Assembly (NCBI GenBank): GCA_963758695.1
Contig: CAVWWM010000002.1
Span: 1,651-65,650, forward strand
Direction: 5' to 3'
Origin: an uncultured Actinomycetes bacterium
GTDB taxonomy: Bacteria; Actinomycetota; Acidimicrobiia; Spongiisociales; DATADW01
Length of the DNA stretch: 64,000 nt
In this document: piece by piece, positions 22,341 through 60,267 of the stretch
Position numbering within the stretch: position 1 is the first letter of the stretch
Layout of the letters: each line of letters starts with the position of its first letter
Made by a program: the position numbers and the translations under genes
Notes under the pieces: generated by a model
The model's database searches: none
Seen by the model: the letters and a program-made list of their open reading frames with translations, nothing else
What the model was told of the DNA's origin: nothing

Positions 22341-25300
22341 ATGCAGGCGTTTCTATTCACAGATATCGAAACGAGCACGCGCCTCTGGGAGGAACACCCC
22401 GATCAGATGGCGGCGGCGCTTGCTCGACACGACTCGATCCTCCGGCACGCGATAGAGCGGTCCGGTGGCCGAGTGCTGAAGACCACCGGCGACGGCATGA
22501 TCGCAGTCTTCGACTCGGTGGTCGACGGCCTGGATGCCGCCGATCAGGCTCAGAAGTCTCTCGGCTCCGAGACCTGGGGGGCCACCGGGCCCCTGCGGGT
22601 GCGGATGGGGGTCCATGCCGGTGAGACGGACGACCGCGATGGTGACTACTTCGGGCCCGTGATGAACCGGACTGCCCGGATCATGGCCGCCGGTCACGGC
22701 GGACAGGTGTTGCTATCCGCCATCGCCGCCAGGATGGCCGAGGATCAGCTTCCCCCAGGGGCGCGATTGCGTGACCTGGGCGCACACCGTCTCAAGGACC
22801 TGACTCTTCCTGAGCACCTCTACCAACTGGTCCAAGACGGCCTCGGGTCCGAGTTCCCACCATTACTCACCCTCGAAGCAAGACCCCACAACTTCCCGCA
22901 GCAGACCACCGAATTCCTGGGACGAGCCGACGAACTGGCTGCGATCGAGGTGATGCTGGAGTCCAGGAGTACGAGGTTGTTGACCGTCGTCGGACCTGGA
23001 GGAGTGGGCAAGACACGTCTCGGGCTGCAGGTCGCCGCCGAGCAGATGGACCACTTTCGAGACGGAGTCTTCTTCGTCGACTTGTCGGCCGAGACTGATC
23101 CGGACAGCGCCTTCGAGGCGGTGGTAAGGGCGCTCAATCTTCCGCTTTCAGGAGGTGGCGAACCGCTCCAGATCCTGAAATCACGGCTCCGCGACAGCCA
23201 GATGCTCCTGGTTCTCGACAACTTCGAGCAGGTGACCGCAGCGGCTGCCGGCGTGTCCGAGCTGCTTCAGGCGGCGCCGGATCTCAAGATCATCGTGACG
23301 AGCCGGGAGACCCTACGGGTGAGGGCTGAGCACGTCTTCCCCGTCCCGCCGTTCGGCCTGCCCCATCCAACGGACCCGACATCTTCAATCGCCGAATCCG
23401 AAGCGGTCCAACTCTTCAGCGAGCGTGCCCGGGCGGTGCGTCCCGAATTCGTCATCACCGACGAGAACGCCACTGAGGTAGCCGAGATCTGTCTTCGACT
23501 CGATGGTCTGCCTCTGGCCATCGAGCTGGCTGCCGCCCGGCTCAACGTCTTCACGCCGTCCGACCTGCTCGACCGTCTGCGCGACCGGCTCGATGTTCTG
23601 GGAAGCGGGGGACGGGATCTCCCTGACAGGCAGCGCACCCTGTGGGCAGCGATCGGGTGGAGCTATGAGCTGCTCGACGACGGCGAGAGGTCCATTTTTG
23701 AACTGATGTCGGTGTTCACGACGGCGGATCTCCCGACTTTGGAGGCGGTGTCCGCCAACGCCTTTGGGGAAATTCCGCTCGTCGACTCGATCGCCTCGCT
23801 GGTGGACAAGAGCCTGGTTCGAGCGGTTGAGAGGGCGGGTTCGCAGCGCTTCTCCATGTTGCTCACGATCAGGGAGTACGCCGAAGCCCGGCTGGCCGAC
23901 AACCCCGAACAGAACGAGGCGGTGCGCCGGGCCCACGCCGTCCATTACTCCGAATTCGGCGCGCAGCTGCATGAGCGTCTCCGTGGCCCTGGACGCGAGG
24001 CTGCCCTCACCGACCTCGAATTGGAGATCGGCAACGTGAGGACCGCCTGGCGTTACTGGGTCGACCGAGCCGATCTGGAGCAGGTGTTCGAACTCGTCGA
24101 CGGGCTGTGGGCGCTCCACGAGGCCAAGGGTTGGTACCACGCCGCCATGGAGCTCGCCACCGATGCGCTCGAAGTGCTGGACAAGGTCGGTCACTCACCG
24201 GGGCTCGCCGCCCAGGAGTTGGCCCTGCGCACCAGTCTGGCCCGCGCCTCGATGGCGGTGCACGGATACGGCGTGGAGGTCGAGGAGGCCTTCAAGGCAG
24301 CCCTGGCGATGGCGCACACCGCGGGAACTGCTGCACAGCAGTTCCCGGTGCTCCGTGCCCTTGCCACCTACTACATGGGCGTGGCGAACTTCGAGCAAGG
24401 GGCCGTGTATGGGCAACGGCTGCTCGACATGGGGGAGCGCGAGGGTGACGACTCGATACGGATCGAAGGCCACTACGTCTACGGGGGAGCCAAGAGCTTC
24501 AGCGGTGATCTCGAAACAGGTCTGCCCCACCTCGAGCGTGTCATCGAGCTTCATGATCCTCGGGTCCATGGCTCGGCTCGCTTCCGGCTCGGGCCTAACA
24601 CAGGCGTTACGGCGCGGGTGGCATCGGGCCTCATTCTGTGGCAAAGCGGTGCTCTGGGGCGAAGTGTCGCCCGGCTCACCGAGGCGCTCGAGATTGCCCG
24701 GGACCTCGACCATCCCTACAGCGTGGCCTTTGCCCTCTATCACAATGGCCTGCTCGCCCTGTTTAGGAGCCGTTTCGACGAGTGTGGGCGAATCGCACGC
24801 GAGCTTGCCGCGGTGGCGGAGGACAACGACTACGTGGTGTGGAAGACACTCGCCACCGTCCTCGAGGGGGTGTCGTTGACCGCCCTCGGTGGGACCGAGC
24901 AGGGCCTGGCGATGACCGAAACCGCCATAGACCTCTACCAAGGGCTGACTACACCGCCGGTGTTCTGGCCGCAGCTTCTCTCGGTCAGAAGCCTGACACA
25001 CGCCTTGGCTGGTCGGCCCGAGCAGGCTCTTGTTTTGATAAATGACGCGTTGGAGATTGGGCAGCCTTATTCGACGGCTCCACCCGATTTCCTGGTGCTC
25101 AAGGGCGACTTCCTCCGCATGCTGACCCCACCGGACCTCGTCGGAGCCGAGGCGGCCTACGAGGCCGGTACCCAAGATGCCCGGACGGCGGGGCTTCACC
25201 TCATCGAACTGCAAGGGCTGACCCGTCTGGTCGGTCTCCGAAGGGAGCTGGGCCGATTCCCCGATGGCAGCGCCGAGCTCGCCGAGCTATATGCCAGTTT

Positions 25301-25400
25301 CACGGAGGGGCACGATGAGCACGACATCACCTTGGCTCGAGACCTATTGAATGTGGAGGGATCCCAATCAGCGCCACTCCCGGGCGCGGAGCTTCCCTGA
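22341..25400 (+). CDS. class III adenylate/guanylate cyclase domain fused to NB-ARC-type STAND ATPase and TPR repeats
   Basis: Intact 1019-aa ORF. Cyclase motifs FLFTDIETST, LKTTGDGMIAVF and GPVMNRTARI. P-loop VVGPGGVGKTRL, Walker B MLLVLDNFEQV, IIVTSRE, and a long TPR-like C-terminus. Confidence 0.85.
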   Translation: MQAFLFTDIETSTRLWEEHPDQMAAALARHDSILRHAIERSGGRVLKTTGDGMIAVFDSVVDGLDAADQAQKSLGSETWGATGPLRVRMGVHAGETDDRDGDYFGPVMNRTARIMAAGHGGQVLLSAIAARMAEDQLPPGARLRDLGAHRLKDLTLPEHLYQLVQDGLGSEFPPLLTLEARPHNFPQQTTEFLGRADELAAIEVMLESRSTRLLTVVGPGGVGKTRLGLQVAAEQMDHFRDGVFFVDLSAETDPDSAFEAVVRALNLPLSGGGEPLQILKSRLRDSQMLLVLDNFEQVTAAAAGVSELLQAAPDLKIIVTSRETLRVRAEHVFPVPPFGLPHPTDPTSSIAESEAVQLFSERARAVRPEFVITDENATEVAEICLRLDGLPLAIELAAARLNVFTPSDLLDRLRDRLDVLGSGGRDLPDRQRTLWAAIGWSYELLDDGERSIFELMSVFTTADLPTLEAVSANAFGEIPLVDSIASLVDKSLVRAVERAGSQRFSMLLTIREYAEARLADNPEQNEAVRRAHAVHYSEFGAQLHERLRGPGREAALTDLELEIGNVRTAWRYWVDRADLEQVFELVDGLWALHEAKGWYHAAMELATDALEVLDKVGHSPGLAAQELALRTSLARASMAVHGYGVEVEEAFKAALAMAHTAGTAAQQFPVLRALATYYMGVANFEQGAVYGQRLLDMGEREGDDSIRIEGHYVYGGAKSFSGDLETGLPHLERVIELHDPRVHGSARFRLGPNTGVTARVASGLILWQSGALGRSVARLTEALEIARDLDHPYSVAFALYHNGLLALFRSRFDECGRIARELAAVAEDNDYVVWKTLATVLEGVSLTALGGTEQGLAMTETAIDLYQGLTTPPVFWPQLLSVRSLTHALAGRPEQALVLINDALEIGQPYSTAPPDFLVLKGDFLRMLTPPDLVGAEAAYEAGTQDARTAGLHLIELQGLTRLVGLRRELGRFPDGSAELAELYASFTEGHDEHDITLARDLLNVEGSQSAPLPGAELP

Positions 25401-27510: not shown

Positions 27511-28776
27511 TTGAACACTCTTATCTCGGCGCTGATGGTGGTGCTCTCGGTCCTGGTGACGGTGACACCGGAGCAGGCAGGCGACGACGACAAGGTTTAC
27601 CAGGAGGAGGATCGAGATCGGTTTGGTCCCCCGCCGATGGTTCCCCAGAACTTCCTGCCCGAGAACAGTCGGGTCTCTGAGACGATTGGCTCCAAACCGA
27701 ACTTGTTCCTGTCGTTCGACGATGGAAACTCGAGCCTGACGCCGGTGTTGCTCGATGTGCTCGCCGACTATCCGGACGTCGGGGTCACCTTCTTCGTGAA
27801 TTGCAAGGAACCGATCTCCGGAGTGATGCAGCGGATCATCGACGACGGACACGCCATCGGCAACCACACCTGCCATCACTCCTTGATGACAGGGATGAGC
27901 TCGTCAGAACGATGGAGCCAGTTCGAACAGCTCAACCAGTTCGTGACCGATCGGGTGGAACCTGATATCAGCATCGGGTGTCACCGGCCGCCGTTCGGCG
28001 CCACCAACGACTCGATCCGGGCTGACGGCGCCGCCCTCGGCTTGCGGGAATGGACGTGGACCATCGACCCATACGACTGGCAGCTGCCGGGGGTGGAGTC
28101 GATCCTCGCCGATCTCGAGAAGATGCGGAACGGGGACATCATCATCCTGCACAACTCGGAGGGAAAGTCGCAGACGATCGAGGCGGTGCGGATCTTCTTC
28201 GCCGAGCACTACGACGACTACCTGTTCCGAGCCCTTCCCCAGTGTGGGGTATCGCTGGGACCGTTCGCTGACGTTCCCAGCAGCGGCACGTTCACCGAGG
28301 ACATCGCCTGGGTCAAGGAGCAGGGCATTGCCCTCGGATGCAATGTCGAGGGCACGATGTTCTGTCCCGATGACCTGGTCACCCGGGGCCAGATGGCGAG
28401 CTTCCTGAGCCGCGCTCTCGAGCTTCCAAAGCCGAGCCGCGGCTACTTCAAGGACGATGGGCACAACGCCCACGAAGACAACATCGACCGGTTGGCAGAG
28501 GCGGGAATCAGCAACGGCTGTGGCGACCGTATCTACTGCCCCGACGACTCAGTGAGCCGCGCTCAGATGGCGTCGTTTCTCGTCAGGGCGCTCGGGCTCG
28601 AGCCGATCCCGGGAGATGTCTTCGGCGACACTTCGGGGCCCCATGAGCCCAACATCAACGCCCTCGCTACCGCCGGGATCACCAAGGGTTGCGACGCAGA
28701 CGGAAAGAGGTTCTGCCCGCACGTGCCGGTGACCCGCGAAGAAATGGCCGCCTTCCTGCACCGGGCGTTCGGTTAG
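27511..28776 (+). CDS. secreted polysaccharide deacetylase (CE4/NodB) with three C-terminal SLH-type repeats
   Basis: Hydrophobic N-terminus; NodB motifs FLSFDDGN, HAIGNHTCHH and RPPFGA. Three repeats follow of the type F.D..G.H...I..LA.AGI..GC....FCP...V.R.QMA.FL.RAL. Confidence 0.8.
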   Translation: MNTLISALMVVLSVLVTVTPEQAGDDDKVYQEEDRDRFGPPPMVPQNFLPENSRVSETIGSKPNLFLSFDDGNSSLTPVLLDVLADYPDVGVTFFVNCKEPISGVMQRIIDDGHAIGNHTCHHSLMTGMSSSERWSQFEQLNQFVTDRVEPDISIGCHRPPFGATNDSIRADGAALGLREWTWTIDPYDWQLPGVESILADLEKMRNGDIIILHNSEGKSQTIEAVRIFFAEHYDDYLFRALPQCGVSLGPFADVPSSGTFTEDIAWVKEQGIALGCNVEGTMFCPDDLVTRGQMASFLSRALELPKPSRGYFKDDGHNAHEDNIDRLAEAGISNGCGDRIYCPDDSVSRAQMASFLVRALGLEPIPGDVFGDTSGPHEPNINALATAGITKGCDADGKRFCPHVPVTREEMAAFLHRAFG

Positions 28777-41960: not shown

Positions 41961-42590
41961 GGGGTTTGTGATGTGGCGTCGCTGGTTGGCGGTGTCGGTT
42001 GTGGTGGTGTTGGTGGTTGGGGGTACGGCGGCGGTGGCTCAGCTGCCGCCGGGGGGGACGTTCACCGATGATGACGGGAATGAGCATGAGGGGTTCATCG
42101 AGGCGATCGCCGCGGCGGGGATAACGCTTGGTTGCAACCCGGAGGGGACGTTGTACTGCCCAGCTGAGCCGGTGCGGCGCGATCAGATGGCTTCGTTTAT
42201 CGCCCGTGGGTTCGAGTTGCCGGCGGCGGGGGAGGACTTCTTCCCCGACGATGAGGGCAACACCCACGAGGACAACATCAACCGGGTGGCGGCGGCGGGG
42301 ATCACGCTCGGGTTCGATGATGGGACGTTCGGTCCGACGCTTCTGGTGTCGCGGGCGCAGATGGCTTCGTTCCTGGCCCGGGCGATGGAGTTGGATCCGG
42401 TGCCGGGCGACCGTTTCTCTGATGTGTCGGGGGAGCATGAGGGGAACATCAACGCCATCGCCGAGGAGGGGGTGACGTTGGGTTGTGACCAGGCGGGGAC
42501 GTTGTTCTGCCCGGACGAGTCGGTGCGTCGTGACCAGATGGCGTCCTTCCTCGGTCGGGCACTCGGTCTCGAACCCACCCCACCACCACC
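41961..42590 (+). repeat. 630-bp direct repeat, copy 1 (identical to 42982-43611)
   Basis: Lines compared base by base. All six-frame ORFs over the two copies are identical in the track. Confidence 0.9.
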
Positions 42591-42981
42591 GGGGACCTCG
42601 AGTACCAGCTCGTCGAGCACAAGTTCCTCCAGCTCTTCGTCGAGTAGCTCGTCATCGAGCAGCTCTTCGAGCAGCACGTCCTCCAGCAGCACGAGCACGA
42701 CGATGGACGACGACGAGGTGGTGATCTCGATCACCGCGGTGCAGGACTTTGGCGACACGACCGTGTCGGTGGGCACCGAGGTCGTCTGGGTCAACAACCA
42801 GAACAACATGAATCACACGAGCACATCGGGCGTCCCGCCCACCGAGGACGGCACTTGGGACTCAGGGATCCTCAACCCAGGGGAGGACTTCTCCCGGGTC
42901 TTCAACACCGCGGGGAGCTTCGAATACTTCTGCACGATCCACGGCAGCGTGATGACCGGCACGATCATCGTCGAGGACTGA
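41968..42981 (+). CDS. secreted SLH-repeat protein with poly-Ser linker and C-terminal cupredoxin domain
   Basis: Signal/TM MMWRRWLAVSVVVVLVVGGTAAVA, three SLH-type repeats and a Ser/Thr run. Cupredoxin end HTSTSG...FEYFCTIHGSVMTGTIIV supplies the His...Cys-x2-His-x3-Met copper ligands. Confidence 0.8.
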   Translation: MMWRRWLAVSVVVVLVVGGTAAVAQLPPGGTFTDDDGNEHEGFIEAIAAAGITLGCNPEGTLYCPAEPVRRDQMASFIARGFELPAAGEDFFPDDEGNTHEDNINRVAAAGITLGFDDGTFGPTLLVSRAQMASFLARAMELDPVPGDRFSDVSGEHEGNINAIAEEGVTLGCDQAGTLFCPDESVRRDQMASFLGRALGLEPTPPPPGTSSTSSSSTSSSSSSSSSSSSSSSSSSTSSSSTSTTMDDDEVVISITAVQDFGDTTVSVGTEVVWVNNQNNMNHTSTSGVPPTEDGTWDSGILNPGEDFSRVFNTAGSFEYFCTIHGSVMTGTIIVED

Positions 42982-43611
42982 GGGGTTTGTGATGTGGCGT
43001 CGCTGGTTGGCGGTGTCGGTTGTGGTGGTGTTGGTGGTTGGGGGTACGGCGGCGGTGGCTCAGCTGCCGCCGGGGGGGACGTTCACCGATGATGACGGGA
43101 ATGAGCATGAGGGGTTCATCGAGGCGATCGCCGCGGCGGGGATAACGCTTGGTTGCAACCCGGAGGGGACGTTGTACTGCCCAGCTGAGCCGGTGCGGCG
43201 CGATCAGATGGCTTCGTTTATCGCCCGTGGGTTCGAGTTGCCGGCGGCGGGGGAGGACTTCTTCCCCGACGATGAGGGCAACACCCACGAGGACAACATC
43301 AACCGGGTGGCGGCGGCGGGGATCACGCTCGGGTTCGATGATGGGACGTTCGGTCCGACGCTTCTGGTGTCGCGGGCGCAGATGGCTTCGTTCCTGGCCC
43401 GGGCGATGGAGTTGGATCCGGTGCCGGGCGACCGTTTCTCTGATGTGTCGGGGGAGCATGAGGGGAACATCAACGCCATCGCCGAGGAGGGGGTGACGTT
43501 GGGTTGTGACCAGGCGGGGACGTTGTTCTGCCCGGACGAGTCGGTGCGTCGTGACCAGATGGCGTCCTTCCTCGGTCGGGCACTCGGTCTCGAACCCACC
43601 CCACCACCACC
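42982..43611 (+). repeat. 630-bp direct repeat, copy 2
   Basis: Offset of 1021 bp from copy 1. Identity ends abruptly at ccaccaccacc|. Confidence 0.9.
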
Positions 43612-43903
43612 CACCACCACGATCGCGACGACGACGACCTCGGCCCCGCCGCCGCCCGACGACGTCTTCGTCTCGATCGAGGACTTCCTGTTCTCGCCGA
43701 ACGACATCACCGTTGAAGAGGGAACCCAGGTCTGGTGGACCAATGTCGGGGACGCGGACCACACCACCACAGGCAGCTCTTGGGACTCGGGGGCCCTCGA
43801 TGCGGACGAGTCCTACGCGGTGACCTTCGAGACGCCCGGTACCTACAACTACATCTGCACGATCCATGACTTCATGACCGGGGTAGTGCGGGTCACCGAC
43901 TGA
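42989..43903 (+). CDS. secreted SLH-repeat protein with Thr/Pro linker and C-terminal cupredoxin domain (paralog)
   Basis: The first ~205 aa are identical to the upstream paralog. The diverged cupredoxin end DADHTTTGSSWDSG...YNYICTIHDFMTGVVRV supplies the His...Cys-x2-His-x3-Met copper ligands. Confidence 0.8.
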   Translation: MMWRRWLAVSVVVVLVVGGTAAVAQLPPGGTFTDDDGNEHEGFIEAIAAAGITLGCNPEGTLYCPAEPVRRDQMASFIARGFELPAAGEDFFPDDEGNTHEDNINRVAAAGITLGFDDGTFGPTLLVSRAQMASFLARAMELDPVPGDRFSDVSGEHEGNINAIAEEGVTLGCDQAGTLFCPDESVRRDQMASFLGRALGLEPTPPPPTTTIATTTTSAPPPPDDVFVSIEDFLFSPNDITVEEGTQVWWTNVGDADHTTTGSSWDSGALDADESYAVTFETPGTYNYICTIHDFMTGVVRVTD

Positions 43904-43911
43904 GGGAGTCG

Positions 43912-43940
43912 GGGGGTGACGCCGAACCGGCGTCACCCCC
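43912..43940. terminator. strong hairpin between convergent genes (bidirectional terminator candidate)
   Basis: Perfect 13-bp GC-rich stem gggggtgacgccg / cggcgtcaccccc with a 3-nt loop, 9 nt after the stop at 43903. Confidence 0.6.
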
Positions 43941-43949
43941 ATGCTCCGG

Positions 43950-44447
43950 TCAGCGAATGATTCGGAGCGTGAGCGTGCTCTCCGTCTCGCCCACGAACCT
44001 GAGGATCATCTCGCCATGGGCGGTGCGGTACCGCCTCGTTCCTCCGGTGATCGCCGCCCGGATCTGATCAGTCGTCTCGGTGAACGTCGCCAGGGTCCTC
44101 ACCGTGATCTGGCCGGCCGGCAGGTCGAGCGTGCCCAGGCAATGGAAGGTGGTTGCTTCGTCCTCACCTATGCCGACCAGTGTGCAGGTCCCGGCAAAGA
44201 CGCCAACGTTCCGGTCACCGATGAACAGATCGTCGTTGAAGACGAAATAATCACCGAGGCTGAACCCGGGATCCCCGACATCGATGTCCACGTCCTCGAT
44301 GGCGCTGATGGCGGTGACCCGCAGCACCTCGACCTTGCCGGCACCATCCGTCGACAGTGCTGACTTCGGTGAGGCGGCCGCCGCCGGAAGGCTGGCGACC
44401 ACGAGCAGGAGCGCCGCCACGGCCCCGAGTCTGAGCTTGGTTCTCAT
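43950..44447 (-). CDS. secreted hypothetical protein (beta-rich)
   Basis: GGAGAAGAGGGG RBS plus ATG at 44447. Signal peptide MRTKLRLGAVAALLLVVASLPAAAA. No family recognised with confidence. Confidence 0.55.
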   Translation of the reverse strand: MRTKLRLGAVAALLLVVASLPAAAASPKSALSTDGAGKVEVLRVTAISAIEDVDIDVGDPGFSLGDYFVFNDDLFIGDRNVGVFAGTCTLVGIGEDEATTFHCLGTLDLPAGQITVRTLATFTETTDQIRAAITGGTRRYRTAHGEMILRFVGETESTLTLRIIR

Positions 44448-44802
44448 AGAACCCCTCTTCTCCCCCCAATTGGTCGATTCAGGCTGGTGTCGTTCTCGAC
44501 AGGGGGAGCGCGGATGGAAGGCAGCGTGGCGGAGGCGAGGGCGAGTGAAAGTGGACGTCGAACGCCGCCCCCCGCCCGGCACACCTTGGGAAGTTCTACT
44601 GCTCCCGGCGCGGCCTCGCCCACAGGTGTCGTCATCGACCCTCCCCCGTGTTGCTCCCGCGCGCACCGTAGACCTGCGTCAGGAGTTTTGCACTGGCGCC
44701 TAGGTAGTTGACCGTTCCGCCGCGCCGGCCCACCAGGTCGGCCCTGCCGGACCGAGCGACCAACCGGACCCATCCCCTAGAGATGCCCAATTGCGGGTAG
44801 TG

Positions 44803-44946
44803 GTGATGTGGCGTCGGTGGTTGGGGCGAGGGGACCCTCGACGCCGACGAGTTCTATTTCGCAGCGCCTGTGACCCGCCCGGTAGTCATGGCTACATCTG
44901 CACGATCCCCGTTTTTCTGACCGCCGTAGCGCGGGTCACTGACTGA
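44803..44946 (+). pseudogene. remnant of a third SLH-cupredoxin paralog (start fused to the last ~35 codons)
   Basis: gtgatgtggcgtcggtggttgg matches the paralog start. It runs directly into ...ccctcgacgccgacgag...ctacatctgcacgatcc...gcgggtcactgactgaggg, which matches the 3' end of 42989..43903 including the stop context. Confidence 0.7.
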
Positions 44947-44965
44947 GGGTTCGAAGCACTTCGAT

Positions 44966-45397
44966 CTATGCCGGAGCCAGTGAACCCTCGGTCACCTCGG
45001 CCTTGTGTGCGGCGAAGGCGCCAAGGACTTCCTCTTTCTCCTGTGCAGGGATACCAAAGCTGTCGAGGGTGCGCCCCAGCTCGGCGGCGACCTCGTCGAA
45101 TTCCGATGGAGTGATGTGGAACTCTCGGTGAGCCTCCTCGAGCCCCAAAGGCGTGCTCCCCGGCTCGGTTGCGGTGAAATCGAAGGGTCCCCCCGCCACG
45201 TCGCAAACCCACAGGGTTCGCATGAACTTCAGCCCGGGGAGCCTCTCCAGGCTGTTGGTGTGCCATTCGCGGAGAACGGGGTTCTCGGATCCCTGGCCAA
45301 CGATCGGGTTTGCGATGAGGGCATCGCTGAACCTGTCCACCACAGCCGCGATGGCGAATACGCCACCCAGCCTCTCGTAAAGACTCGCCTCGGGCAT
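44966..45397 (-). CDS. glbN: group I truncated haemoglobin
   Basis: SLYERLGGVFAIAAVVDRFSDALIANP start typical of trHbN. EAHREFHITPSEFDEVAAEL holds the proximal His region. Confidence 0.75.
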   Translation of the reverse strand: MPEASLYERLGGVFAIAAVVDRFSDALIANPIVGQGSENPVLREWHTNSLERLPGLKFMRTLWVCDVAGGPFDFTATEPGSTPLGLEEAHREFHITPSEFDEVAAELGRTLDSFGIPAQEKEEVLGAFAAHKAEVTEGSLAPA

Positions 45398-45854: not shown

Positions 45855-45880
45855 CCGACGGGAACGAAGAAGGAGTTGTG

Positions 45881-47070
45881 ATGGGGAAGGCGAAGTTTGA
45901 GCGGACGAAGCCTCATGTGAATGTGGGGACGATGGGTCATATTGATCATGGGAAGACGACGTTGACGGCGGCGATCACGAAGGTGTTGCATGAGCGTGAT
46001 TCTTCTGTGGCGTTCACGTCTTTCGATCAGATTGATAAGGCGCCTGAGGAGCGGGAGCGGGGGATCACGATCCAGATCGCTCATGTGGAGTATGAGACCC
46101 CGAACCGTCATTACGCCCATGTGGATATGCCGGGTCATGCTGATTACATCAAGAACATGATTACGGGGGCGGCGCAGGTGGATGGGGCGATCCTGGTGGT
46201 GTCGGCGGCTGATGGTCCGATGCCTCAGACGAGGGAGCATGTGTTGTTGGCCCGTCAGGTTGGGGTGCCTTCGATCGTGGTGTTTTTGAACAAGGTGGAC
46301 ATGGTCGATGACCCTGAGCTGTTGGATTTGGTGGAGCTCGAGGTGCGGGATCTGTTGACCGAGTATGAGTTCCCGGGGGATGAGGTGCCGGTGGTGCGCG
46401 GTTCGGCCTTGCAGGCGCTTGGAGGGGGAGGGGGAGGGTCCTTCCCAGATCGTGGAGTTGATGGAGGCGGTGGATTCTTACGTGCCGGAGCCGGTGCGTG
46501 ATGTGGAGAAGCCGTTCATGATGGCGATCGAGGATGTGTTCAGTATTACGGGGCGGGGGACGGTGGTGACTGGTCGGGTGGAGCAGGGTGTGTTGAAGGT
46601 GAACGAGGAGGTGGAGATCGTCGGGATCCGCCCTACCCGCAAGACGGTGGCTACTGGGGTGGAGATGTTCCGTAAGTTGTTGGATGAGGGGCGGGCGGGG
46701 GACAACGTTGGGGTGCTGTCTGCGGGGGGTGGGTAAGGATGAGGTGGAGCGGGGTCAGGTGTTGGCTAAGCCGGGGTCGATCACTCCGCACACCAATTTC
46801 GAGGCGGCGGTGTATGTGTTGACTAAGGAGGAGGGGGGCCGGCACAACCCGTTCTTTTCTGGTTACCGCCCCCAGTTCTATTTCCGGACGACTGATGTGA
46901 CTGGTTCGGTGACGTTGCCGGAGGGGACGGAGATGGTGATGCCGGGTGACCAGACGCAGATGACGGTGGAGTTGATCGCTCCGATCGCGATGGACGACGG
47001 TTTGCGTTTCGCCATCCGCGAGGGTGGCCGCACCGTCGGTGCCGGCCGGGTCACCAAGATCCTGAAATGA
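45881..47070 (+). CDS. tuf: elongation factor Tu, split into three ORFs by two single-base insertions (~46420, ~46719)
   Basis: [36 protein letters not shown] and NKVD. The sequence continues as ...[26 protein letters not shown]...[13 protein letters not shown] in ORF 46365.. and as ...[19 protein letters not shown]...[15 protein letters not shown] in ORF 46684... Confidence 0.95.
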
Positions 47071-57695: not shown

Positions 57696-57739
57696 AGCGT
57701 CGCAGAGGAGGAGAGACGCAAAGTTACTCGAGTCGCCAT

Positions 57740-57808
57740 CTTCCGGCTGAAGCCGGAAGCCACACCGGGCACGAATGTCTGGCTGTGGCTTCCGGCTTTA
57801 GCCGGAAG
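57740..57808. repeat. pair of inverted GC-rich hairpin repeats (REP-like) between convergent genes
   Basis: cttccggctgaagccggaagccaca (57740-57764) and tgtggcttccggctttagccggaag (57784-57808). Each unit is itself a hairpin CTTCCGGC-loop-GCCGGAAG. Confidence 0.85.
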
Positions 57809-57827
57809 ATGACTGTAGCGGTGCGCT

Positions 57828-59234
57828 TTATTTCGTGAGCACTCGGATCGTGCCGTCGCCCTTGTTCAGCAGAAAGATCTGATTGTCCGGGCCCAGTATT
57901 CATCCGCAGATCCGCACGCGTCGCGGGCATCTTGCCCTGCGCCATGTTCTTGGCCTTGATCACCTCGAGGAAGGTCTTCGCCGTGCCGCCCTCGTTGAGC
58001 AGGATGCGGCGGATGGCATCCTGGCCGCCGCTCGGCAGGTTGTCCGCGTTCACGTAGAAGAGTTCGCCGCTGGGCATGTCGGCAAAGATCAGCAGGTTCG
58101 CGAGCTGCGGGACCTGGTTGCCGCGATAGACCACCAGGCCGCCGGCGGCGGACTGGGATTGCAGGAGCGGGTCGAGCTGTCCCCATTCGGCGATCGGATA
58201 GGTCACCTTCGGGTCGCCGCGCTGGTTTTCGAGCGCCACGCCTTGGCGCCCCCCGTATCTGTAGCTGCCCTCCCAGACGTTCCACCCGAGGTTGGCGCCC
58301 GGTGTGACGCGGCTGATTTCCTCGACAGTGCCCTGGCCGATGTCGGACATGAACATGGCGCCGTTGCGCGAGTCCCAGGCGAATCGCTGCGGATTGCGCA
58401 CGCCGTAGGCGTAAATCTCGGGGAGCGCGCCCGGCGTGTTTCGCATCGGGTTGTCGGCGGGGATGCCGTATTTCTTGTTCGCGCTGTTGTTGCCCAGCGG
58501 GTCGATGCGGAAGATCTTCCCGAACGCGATGCCCAGGTTCTGCGCCATGTTGAGCGGGTCGCCGCCGCTGCCGCCGTCCGCGACGCCCATGTACAGCAGG
58601 CCGAAGTCCGGAGAGTTCGGCTCGGCGAGCGGGTTGAAGGCGAGCATGCCGCCGTTGTGGTTCTGGAACGGGTCCCGCCATCGCATGAGCTCACGCGGCG
58701 CGCCGCCGTCGTAGGTCGCCGCGCCGGGGGTCTTGGCCGTCCACTCGAGCAGCACGGCATGGTGCGTGTCCATTCCGCCTGGTGCGGGATGGAAGTCCGC
58801 CGGCGGCGTCATGTTCGTGGTGTCGGTGTAGGTGTAGAACTTCCCGAAGCCCCGGCTGCCTTGCTGGTTGAACTGCGGGTGAACCGCGAAGCTCTGGAAG
58901 CCGCGCTCGCGGCCCATCGACTGGACCGGCACTCCCGCCGCGTTGATATCCAGGTACTTCGTGACCGTCTTGCCGTCCTCAGTGACCCGATAGAGCTGGC
59001 CGCGCATGTCGTTGACGAACACGCGGCGCGTCCCCGGCTCGGTGACGAGGTTCATCATGCGCGCCGCCACGCCGTCGATATCCGGCAGCGAGGCGAACTC
59101 CTGGTAGTTCACGCGGATGACGCCTCGGTCGCGGGAATGGCCGTCGGGAACGGGTCGGTGGGTGCCTGCGCGAGCACACCCAGGACCGGCAGCGACGAGA
59201 GTGCGATGACACGAATCACGTGTGTCATGGCCAT
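57828..59234 (-). CDS. PQQ-dependent sugar (glucose/sorbosone) dehydrogenase-type beta-propeller, two frame changes (~59125, ~57890)
   Basis: ERGFQSFAVHPQF, NHNGGMLAFNP, YAYGVRNPQRFAWD and DIGQGTVEEI. The signal peptide MAMTHVIRVIALSSLPVLGVLAQA and the true C-terminus DNQIFLLNKGDGTIRVLTK-stop (57828) are in other frames than the main ORF 57724..59685. Confidence 0.75.
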
Positions 59235-59348
59235 CTAACCTATCCGAATGCGCCATTCTTGTGTAGGGGACGGGAATGGGTTTCCATTTTCGTGCTCCAA
59301 GGCCTCTGTGTCTCGTGTCCCTGTGGCCCGTGGAACTGAAAAAACGCT

Positions 59349-60267
59349 TCAGCCACGGGCCTCCAGTGCCGCAGGTGTGAAGAAGTCGTCCGCGTTCCGG
59401 TGCTGGAATCCGAGCCGGCGCGCGAAACCTGGATCCTGCGCGCCTGCGCCGACGTAGATGCACTGCGAGACGTCGAGAAGATAGCGCTGAATGAACACGA
59501 CGCCCAGGCCGGGCAGCGGCTTGCGGCACCAGCAGGTCGGCGGCCCGGCGCCATGTGGACAGTACTGAACGTCGATGGACAGTCCCAACATCTCCTGCAT
59601 GCGCGCGAGCACGGCATCGACGTTGCCGGCGGACATCGTTCCTTCGGCGACGCGCGGTTGCCAGGACAGCCCCAGCACGCGCCAACCGGCGGCCTGATAG
59701 CCACGCAGCACTTCTCCGCGTTCGGCACGCACCTCGACATCCTCGACAGACGCCGGCGTGCGTGAGCCGGATCGGCTGCGATACAGAACGTCGTCACACC
59801 ACACGATGAGCGCGCGGTTCACAAAGGAAGGGTTGTGCCGGCGCTCGAATGGCATGACGTCAATCCGCGAGAACATCACGGAGGGATCCGGGGGCTCCAG
59901 ATCACGTTGATAGCGGAACTGCACTGCCGGACCGAATGACGCCGCGTCGAGCCGGGCGTTCCCCAACAGCGTCCGCCACGCGACGTTCACCTGTGCATCC
60001 TCGACGCTGGTCGAAAGCCAGACACACCGGACTGGAAGGCCGCGTTGCCCGGCGGCCTGAATCACGGCCGCCCTCGACTTGCGGGAGACATACGTATTGT
60101 CGAGGACGATGCGCGAACGTCCGGAGGCGAGTGCGCGATCGAGAGCCGGAAGCAGCCCGCGCAACGATCCGCCGACCTCGTCGCGGTTCAACCGCTGGTA
60201 GCCCTGCGCGACGAACGATCCGGCCACGGTGCTCTTCGGCGCCGGGCAGGCCAATAATCAGAACCAC
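59349..60267 (-). CDS. P-loop kinase (AAA_33/polynucleotide-kinase-like) fused to HAD-type phosphatase (GmhB/PNKP-like), frame change in the P-loop (~60236)
   Basis: VVLIIGLPGA then, after a 1-nt shift, KSTVAGSFVAQGYQRLNRDE. The C-terminal CPHGAGPPTCWCRKPLPG resembles the Zn-binding motif of histidinol-phosphatase-type HAD enzymes. Confidence 0.6.

Follow-up and report, generated by a model that had tools for sequence, protein, structure and literature searches.

Genes A and B, two head-to-tail genes of an uncultured actinobacterium of the class Acidimicrobiia, share a 5' half of 630 nucleotides (nt) without a single difference and then part abruptly into 3' halves that are clearly diverged. 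They lie in a 64,000-nt stretch of contig CAVWWM010000002.1 (GenBank assembly GCA_963758695.1), hereafter the window. The shared half codes for a putative export signal and a predicted wall anchor of three SLH repeats, and the private halves for two different predicted blue copper (cupredoxin) domains. Very probably, the anchor-coding halves of this pair have been overwritten repeatedly, one by the other, through homologous recombination, as gene conversion or unequal exchange, and evolve in concert. Concerted evolution is a process already known; the locus is a well-supported, clean and fresh example of it from uncultured soil actinobacteria, in which recombination would lock one module, the wall anchor, while the adjoining redox module diverges, the tract stopping where homology stops.

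Extent of the identical repeat

Direct comparison finds a single maximal exact match at an offset of 1021 nt, in which 41961-42590 equals 42982-43611 over 630 nt with no mismatch and no gap. The same 630-nt match was recovered independently by a repeat search and by BLAST, and 630 identical bases cannot be attributed to chance. A preliminary description of the window, made from the letters alone, had claimed identity of the two genes over these coordinates and at this offset, and the comparison bears it out at 630/630 positions. Copy 1 (41961..42590, + strand) comprises the ribosome-binding stretch, start codon, signal peptide, three SLH repeats and PTPPP hinge of gene A. Copy 2 (42982..43611, +) is the identical 630 nt heading gene B, and its first base lies directly 3' of the stop codon of gene A. 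At the left end of the identity, the sequence before copy 1 is unique and intergenic, whereas copy 2 follows on the last codons of gene A and their TGA. The right end falls within CCACCCCACCACCACC, the PTPPPP hinge, beyond which the sequences are unalignable. The identity was also said to begin 7 nt upstream of the start codon, which holds for the start of the listed open reading frame (ORF). Gene calls in the relatives begin at an ATG three bases further in (MWRRW...); if this is the real start, the identity begins 10 nt, not 7 nt, upstream of it and covers the GGGG/G-rich ribosome-binding stretch.

Gene A (41968-42981, +; 337 residues), delimited from the ORF list, Pfam and PDB sequence matches, consists of a signal peptide (codons 1-25), an SLH module (26-204), a poly-Ser/Thr linker (209-~245) and a predicted type-1 copper cupredoxin domain. 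Gene B (42989-43903, +; 304 residues), lying 7 nt beyond the stop of A, has a signal peptide and SLH module identical to those of A, followed by a short Thr/Pro linker and a type-1 cupredoxin domain of its own. The specific 3' half of each gene, linker plus cupredoxin, spans 42592..42981 (+) in A and 43612..43903 (+) in B, with linkers of ~35 residues (poly-Ser/Thr) and ~15 residues (Thr/Pro), respectively. Both the contrast between poly-Ser and Thr/Pro linkers and the cupredoxin motifs FEYFCTIHGSVMTG and YNYICTIHDFMTG, as given in the preliminary description, are present in the sequence.

Orthology of the copper halves and probable homogenisation of the anchors

A scan of one genome per species yielded five syntenic loci (L001-L005) in Acidimicrobiia/Actinomycetes metagenome-assembled genomes of the Microflora Danica project, and look-ups of homologous proteins yielded three more (L048-L050). 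The order glyoxalase - A - B is conserved in 8/8 of these other assemblies. The 3' half of window A matches only the first gene of the pair in the eight relatives, at 81-86% DNA identity, and that of window B only the second gene, at 84-93%, with no cross matches. Since each 3' half is orthologous by type across lineages, both cupredoxin types are older than the lineage split. When the A and B 3' halves of the window (linker and cupredoxin together) are aligned with each other, 41% of residues agree, at a synonymous divergence (dS) of 0.85 and a nonsynonymous divergence (dN) of 0.56. For either cupredoxin, relatives no more distant than this are found in organisms with anchors of only 50-64% identity to those of the window. 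We take the A/B duplication to be old.

Within the 630-nt block, the A and B anchors of one genome differ at no position in the window, at 5 in L003, 6 in L001, 7 in L049, 10 in L004, 11 in both L002 and L050, 17 in L048 and 70 in L005. The nearest anchor of another lineage stands 21-24 differences from those of the window, 24-29 from those of L003, 43 from those of L050 and 15 from those of L004. Overall, anchors differ by 15-57 positions between lineages, as against 0-17 within genomes other than the deep L005. Neighbour-joining trees unite the A and B anchors of a single genome with a bootstrap of 1.00 for the window, L003 and L050 and of 0.94 for L004; the alternative split, all A anchors from all B anchors, receives 0.00. 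Orthologous anchors diverge nearly exclusively at synonymous positions, of which 21-25 are different (dS 0.15-0.18, dN 0.006-0.013), and the two anchors of the window have zero synonymous differences within the repeat, compared with the dS of 0.85 in their 3' halves. The clustering of anchors within genomes, the orthology of the 3' halves and the absence of synonymous differences together support the earlier suggestion that recent gene conversion or recombination has homogenised the anchor half.

The residual A/B anchor differences in the relatives fall mostly at the ends of the block, either in the 7 nt before the start or in the last ~60 nt, as expected because the end points of conversion tracts vary. 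In L005, the deepest lineage, the 70 A/B differences lie in patches. Its A anchor stands 43-56 differences from every other anchor and its B anchor 74-89, which suggests that an A-type anchor overwrote the B anchor in the lineages other than L005.

On this explanation, recombination between the tandem copies in this genus would cause the anchor-coding halves to evolve in concert. The left limit of the tract would be the edge of the duplicated unit, at the start codon and ribosome-binding site, and the right limit the Pro hinge, past which the low-complexity linkers and the ~50%-identical cupredoxin DNA, saturated at synonymous sites, would offer no homology. Homologous recombination requires near-identical stretches for strand exchange. 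Because of this need, a tract begun in the anchor would be unable to enter the 3' half, which, once diverged, would remain outside the process. The window would then hold the most recently homogenised pair, with its 0 differences.

Two distant tandem SLH-cupredoxin pairs, L051 from a JGI metagenome and L052 from a marine metagenome, have anchors that are only 63% identical at the protein level. Because these anchors have diverged, the architecture or fold does not by itself bring homogenisation, which is lineage-specific and a trait of the present genus-level group. The L051 (1649-3652) and L052 (3094-5187) pairs sit in other neighbourhoods, the first with MoxR/DUF58/VWA genes and the second with MerR and radical-SAM genes, and their copper ligand loops are longer, e.g. 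C-x2-H-x4-M.

Several points weigh against recurrent homogenisation as told above. In L001, L049 and L048, which are closely related, the anchors do not group by genome of origin. Third-codon-position divergence of the flanking genes ranges from 0.01 to 0.37 between lineages, which implies mosaic genomes, and because the lineages are mosaics the between-genome distance is no clean clock. A RecA-type mechanism, the direction of the transfers and the tract lengths are things that we infer. The zero count in the window comes from a single consensus sequence, in which indel errors are visible at other places, and several of the relatives' copies contain frameshifts, which are either errors or real decay. 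As to function, no gene for a redox partner or a copper chaperone occurs among the ~35 scanned window ORFs or in the flanks of the related loci, and because no redox partner gene is nearby the electron-carrier role proposed below stands by family analogy only.

The mosaicism itself is illustrated by two neighbours of the pair: the AOC-like gene of the window is 1% from that of L002 at third positions, and tuf is 37% from that of L002 and 8.5% from that of L003. These lineages appear to exchange DNA. The idea that the synonymous divergence of the anchor between lineages is unusually low was rejected, the anchor value of ~0.10 being no outlier against the 0.01-0.37 of the flanking genes.

A decayed third copy and unequal rates of change

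A relic of a third copy (44803..44949, +), recognised from repeat families, BLAST and alignments, joins the gene's first 22 nt to the final ~130 nt of a cupredoxin of type B. By BLAST, the 22 nt of its start (44803-44824) are 95% identical to the gene start, and 44821-44949 matches 43780-43906 at 74.6% over ~130 nt. The junction is an internal deletion at a TTGG microhomology, and the copper ligands His and Met have been lost (YICTIPVFLTAV). The relic lies between the AOC-like gene and a truncated-globin gene, and a more deleted form of it is found in L001, L002 and L004. L005 and L050 are without the AOC-like gene, and there the 3' end of gene B and the sequence downstream align with the relic and the relic's own downstream flank. 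The AOC-like gene occurs only in relic-carrying lineages (it is absent from L005 and L050 and was not found in L003), and its 1% distance from L002 hints that it was acquired or exchanged recently. Most simply, an ancestor of the subgroup to which the window belongs would have duplicated the B end of the array, the AOC-like gene being flanked by the two copies, and an internal deletion would later have hollowed out the more distal one; by this account the locus has grown and shrunk before. An 8-nt match (AGATGCCC) between the sequence upstream of the relic and that upstream of gene A was set aside as too short for any claim.

The modules also change at different rates. At codon positions 1+2, cupredoxin A differs between lineages by 0.09-0.17, the fastest of ten segments tested, cupredoxin B by 0.03-0.055 and the anchors by 0.005-0.026, except for the divergent B anchor of L005 (0.07). 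The residues between the His and Met ligands vary by lineage in A (GSV, DDL, DNL, GNQ) and are constant in B (DF). Cupredoxin A is apparently under relaxed or changing constraint, with its ligands retained.

Together, the relic and the fast-evolving A domain could be read in another way, in which the 630-bp perfect direct repeat is a maintained recombination substrate for the gain and loss of copper-domain cassettes and serves to tune a wall-tethered electron relay of two cupredoxins that would span the thick envelope of these monoderm Acidimicrobiia. A crossover between the anchors would delete cupredoxin A, and re-expansion would restore it or yield a third copy like the decayed one at 44803-44949. 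If this were true, the fast protein-level change of cupredoxin A, ligand loop included, would be an adaptation to different extracellular redox partners. With only the relic and the A domain as its basis, we regard such a maintained function as unlikely.

Alternatives to recurrent homogenisation

A single recent event, either a fresh tandem duplication joined by a foreign cupredoxin domain or a one-off replacement of the anchor in the common ancestor, would account for the abrupt edge at the hinge and for linkers that are not homologous, both reminiscent of a domain swap, and SLH anchors of the same type are indeed joined to a variety of further C-terminal domains (GH12, nuclease, transglycosylase and others). 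Each of the nine lineages, however, even the deep L005 and L050, has both cupredoxin types in one and the same arrangement, and the pair must therefore predate their split. One ancestral homogenisation would further predict equal distances within and between genomes, whereas those within are 2-10 times smaller in four independent lineages, and the 70 patchy differences of L005 point to homogenisation at different times in different lineages. We consider a single event quite improbable.

An artefact of assembly or polishing, in which anchors that are really one copy were duplicated or anchors that are really different were averaged by the assembler or consensus, was also raised in the preliminary description. 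The essential tuf gene of the window (elongation factor Tu, 45878-47070) is broken into three frames: compared with the intact gene of L049 it has one extra base at 46417 and another at 46719, and with at least these two insertions the consensus is imperfect. These are most likely long-read consensus errors, and they warn that other frameshifts in the window may be unreal. Zero differences is, moreover, the extreme of the 0-17 range among the relatives, and exact-sequence look-ups of the A and B proteins, with either the GTG or the ATG start, returned no database match. Set against this, each copy runs into its own complete and different 3' half, with orthologues in the same order in 8 other assemblies, and because each copy is pinned in this way a collapsed or duplicated repeat is disfavoured. 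The relatives named here are Nanopore-only Flye assemblies polished with Medaka (PMC12313526), and reads of this kind span a repeat of 630 nt. The window was very probably assembled with the same technology, because its indel pattern is typical of such long-read assemblies. Random consensus errors, for their part, create differences and not identity, and six relatives (L003, L001, L049, L004, L002 and L050) independently show near-identity of their own, with 5-11 differences in 630. An artefact thus seems very unlikely as the cause of the repeat, given the distinct 3' halves and the relatives' long-read layouts, although the exact zero cannot be certified without reads and the true A/B count is possibly one or two. 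Short-read assemblies break at perfect 0.6-kb repeats such as this one, and deletion variants are to be expected.

Purifying selection alone, on the argument that both anchors must bind the same wall polymer, merits next to no credence: the anchor is strongly constrained (dN 0.006-0.013 between lineages, many invariant columns), but selection on protein does not preserve synonymous sites, at which orthologues carry 21-25 differences and the window copies 0, the non-coding bases just upstream of the start are also identical, and since the identity covers every synonymous site of the repeat such selection cannot be its cause.

Predicted products of genes A and B

The N-terminus (MWRRWLAVSVVVVLVVGGTAAVA/Q) looks like an export signal. 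The SLH family of Pfam (PF00395) scores 53.5 and 54.4 bits against A and B (gathering threshold 20.8), with the best stretch in the middle repeat, residues 98-133, and Copper-bind (PF00127) scores 27.8 and 33.1 bits (gathering threshold 21.2). The NCBIfam amicyanin equivalog (TIGR02657) gives 25.3 and 35.8 bits, far under its cut-off of 110.2, and both proteins likewise fall short of the NCBIfam equivalog cut-offs for plastocyanin and halocyanin. A PDB sequence search with both copper domains returned amicyanin, plastocyanin and the C-terminal cupredoxin of an N. maritimus enzyme (9cck). By these matches we place A and B within the amicyanin/plastocyanin class and outside those named equivalog families.

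The copper ligands are H283, C322, H325 and M329 in A, with a loop of C-x2-H-x3-M, and H258, C290, H293 and M296 in B, with a loop of C-x2-H-x2-M, the amicyanin spacing. All four are invariant in an alignment of 25 SLH-cupredoxins, and a type-1 copper site is predicted in both proteins from their conservation. Among the same 25 homologues, the Arg of the SLH motif 'xRxx' (R71, R129, R188) is invariant in SLH1 and SLH3 and at least 90% conserved in SLH2, which is consistent with, though not proof of, binding to a pyruvylated secondary cell-wall polymer. Such binding requires a CsaB-type pyruvyltransferase in the genome; pyruvyltransferase families had no match in the flanks of the related loci or among the ~35 window ORFs scanned, a scan outside which fell ~20 smaller ORFs and the rest of the genome. 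Two Cys pairs, C56/C64 in SLH1 and C173/C181 in SLH3, are likewise invariant in the alignment. These extra pairs are without counterpart in the canonical middle repeat. SLH repeats 1 and 3 inside each gene are 78% identical at the DNA level (42082-42202 versus 42433-42553, and likewise in copy 2), a likeness that may reflect internal duplication or intragenic homogenisation.

Structure modelling and Foldseek searches covered the gene B product only. Its AlphaFold2 model, built with the 25 homologues, has a mean predicted local distance difference test (pLDDT) of 84.8, the greater part of the SLH module lying >90 and that of the cupredoxin core at ~86-91. The SLH module is modelled as six helices in three pairs, at pLDDT >90. 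Against the PDB, residues ~30-205 match the three-SLH modules of Paenibacillus alvei SpaA and Bacillus anthracis Sap (7sv3, 6cwh, 3pyw) with a target template-modelling (TM) score of 0.77-0.84 and E ~1e-9, and the C-terminal ~95 residues match amicyanin (1id2, 2gb2) with a target TM score of ~0.75.

A and B would accordingly be exported proteins, tethered non-covalently to the wall through three SLH repeats that bind a pyruvylated polymer, each holding a different copper domain on a flexible linker. By analogy with their family, both may act as one-electron carriers at the cell wall. Such tethering makes sense because a monoderm bacterium has no outer membrane to retain carriers.

Co-transcription of A and B as a two-gene operon is likely, because the genes are spaced by 7 nt and a stable hairpin follows B. 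This G+C-rich hairpin (43905..43947), an inverted repeat with an RNA folding energy of -42.9 kcal/mol (z = -6.1), lies between gene B and the convergent AOC-like gene and is a probable two-way terminator closing the operon. A scan for consensus promoters and terminators around the A-B pair gave nothing useful, and the hairpin, which has no T tail, was not called by it.

Relation to known systems

The tufA/tufB genes of Salmonella and Escherichia coli are the textbook case of concerted evolution of bacterial paralogues by gene conversion, and a 2005 review by Santoyo and Romero reportedly treats the subject. The likeness to tufA/tufB is that paralogues within a genome are near-identical, synonymous sites included, while orthologues diverge, and that recombination would act between copies in one chromosome. 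The A-B pair differs in that homogenisation is limited to the 5' module (63-69% of each gene) and leaves the 3' domains free, and in that its copies are head-to-tail and 7 nt apart, not dispersed.

In layout, the pair recalls the sap S-layer family of Campylobacter fetus, whose members have a ~600-bp conserved 5' region, beginning upstream of the ORF, and variable 3' parts. The sap cassettes are promoterless and are switched for antigenic variation by inversion of a single promoter. Both systems have an identical block of ~0.6 kb that runs from upstream of the start through an N-terminal surface anchor and is followed by divergent C-terminal parts. Here, however, there are two direct-repeat genes, apparently in one operon, and the variable parts are redox domains, not antigens. 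Neither the repeat search nor BLAST finds an inverted copy of the 630-nt block in the window, and there is no invertible element. Cassette switching of the sap kind was rejected, the locus having two direct-repeat genes and a dead relic but no silent cassettes and no invertible promoter.

The SLH proteins of Firmicutes (B. anthracis Sap/EA1 and P. alvei SpaA; 3pyw, 6bt4, 6cwc, 7sv3) share the predicted three-SLH fold and the motif Arg in each repeat. Sequence identity to them is 18-24%, and the proteins described here differ further in their extra Cys pairs, their actinobacterial host (Acidimicrobiia) and their cargo, a small cupredoxin in place of an S-layer lattice domain. With the amicyanin/plastocyanin class (1id2, 1aac, 1pcs; C-terminal cupredoxin of 9cck) they share the cupredoxin fold and the His-Cys-His-Met ligand set, B also the amicyanin spacing. 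Unlike members of that class, which are free in the periplasm, they would be SLH-tethered to the wall, and no methylamine dehydrogenase (mau-type) or partner genes occur in the window or the related loci.

SLH-cupredoxins are common in sequence databases, some labelled only 'plastocyanin'. Acidimicrobiia from soils, sediments and the sea encode them, often by two genes in tandem. In related bacteria this anchor module is also joined to a wide range of further extracellular domains, among them GH12, nuclease and transglycosylase domains. Our literature searches on SLH combined with cupredoxin or blue copper returned no relevant paper, those on S-layers and concerted evolution one unrelated paper, and those on the C. 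fetus sap 5' region passing mentions only. SLH-tethered blue copper proteins are a widespread and unstudied architecture, which bears on how soluble electron carriers may be retained at a surface without an outer membrane.

Genomic neighbourhood

The pair is surrounded by genes for glyoxalase-family proteins, an ArsR-type regulator, a truncated globin, tRNAs, tuf and a secE-nusG-rplKA cluster. Between B and the relic lies a gene for an AOC-like/dirigent-like barrel (43950..44666, -; Pfam AOC_like, 9.2e-09), which is called in the relatives as 165 residues, ~43950-44447. The truncated-globin gene follows at 44966-45397 (-). An ORF resembling glucose/sorbosone dehydrogenases (57724-59685) was considered as a sharer of the anchor or as a partner and was rejected, having no similarity. 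One further SLH protein is encoded in the window, an exported polysaccharide deacetylase with C-terminal SLH repeats (27511-28776, +); its gene is 67% identical in DNA to the anchor block and stands outside the homogenised set. Elsewhere, the window carries an IS110-family transposase gene (1260-2570, +) and a gene (22341-25400, +) for a protein of 1019 residues with both an adenylate/guanylate cyclase domain and a STAND/NB-ARC NTPase.

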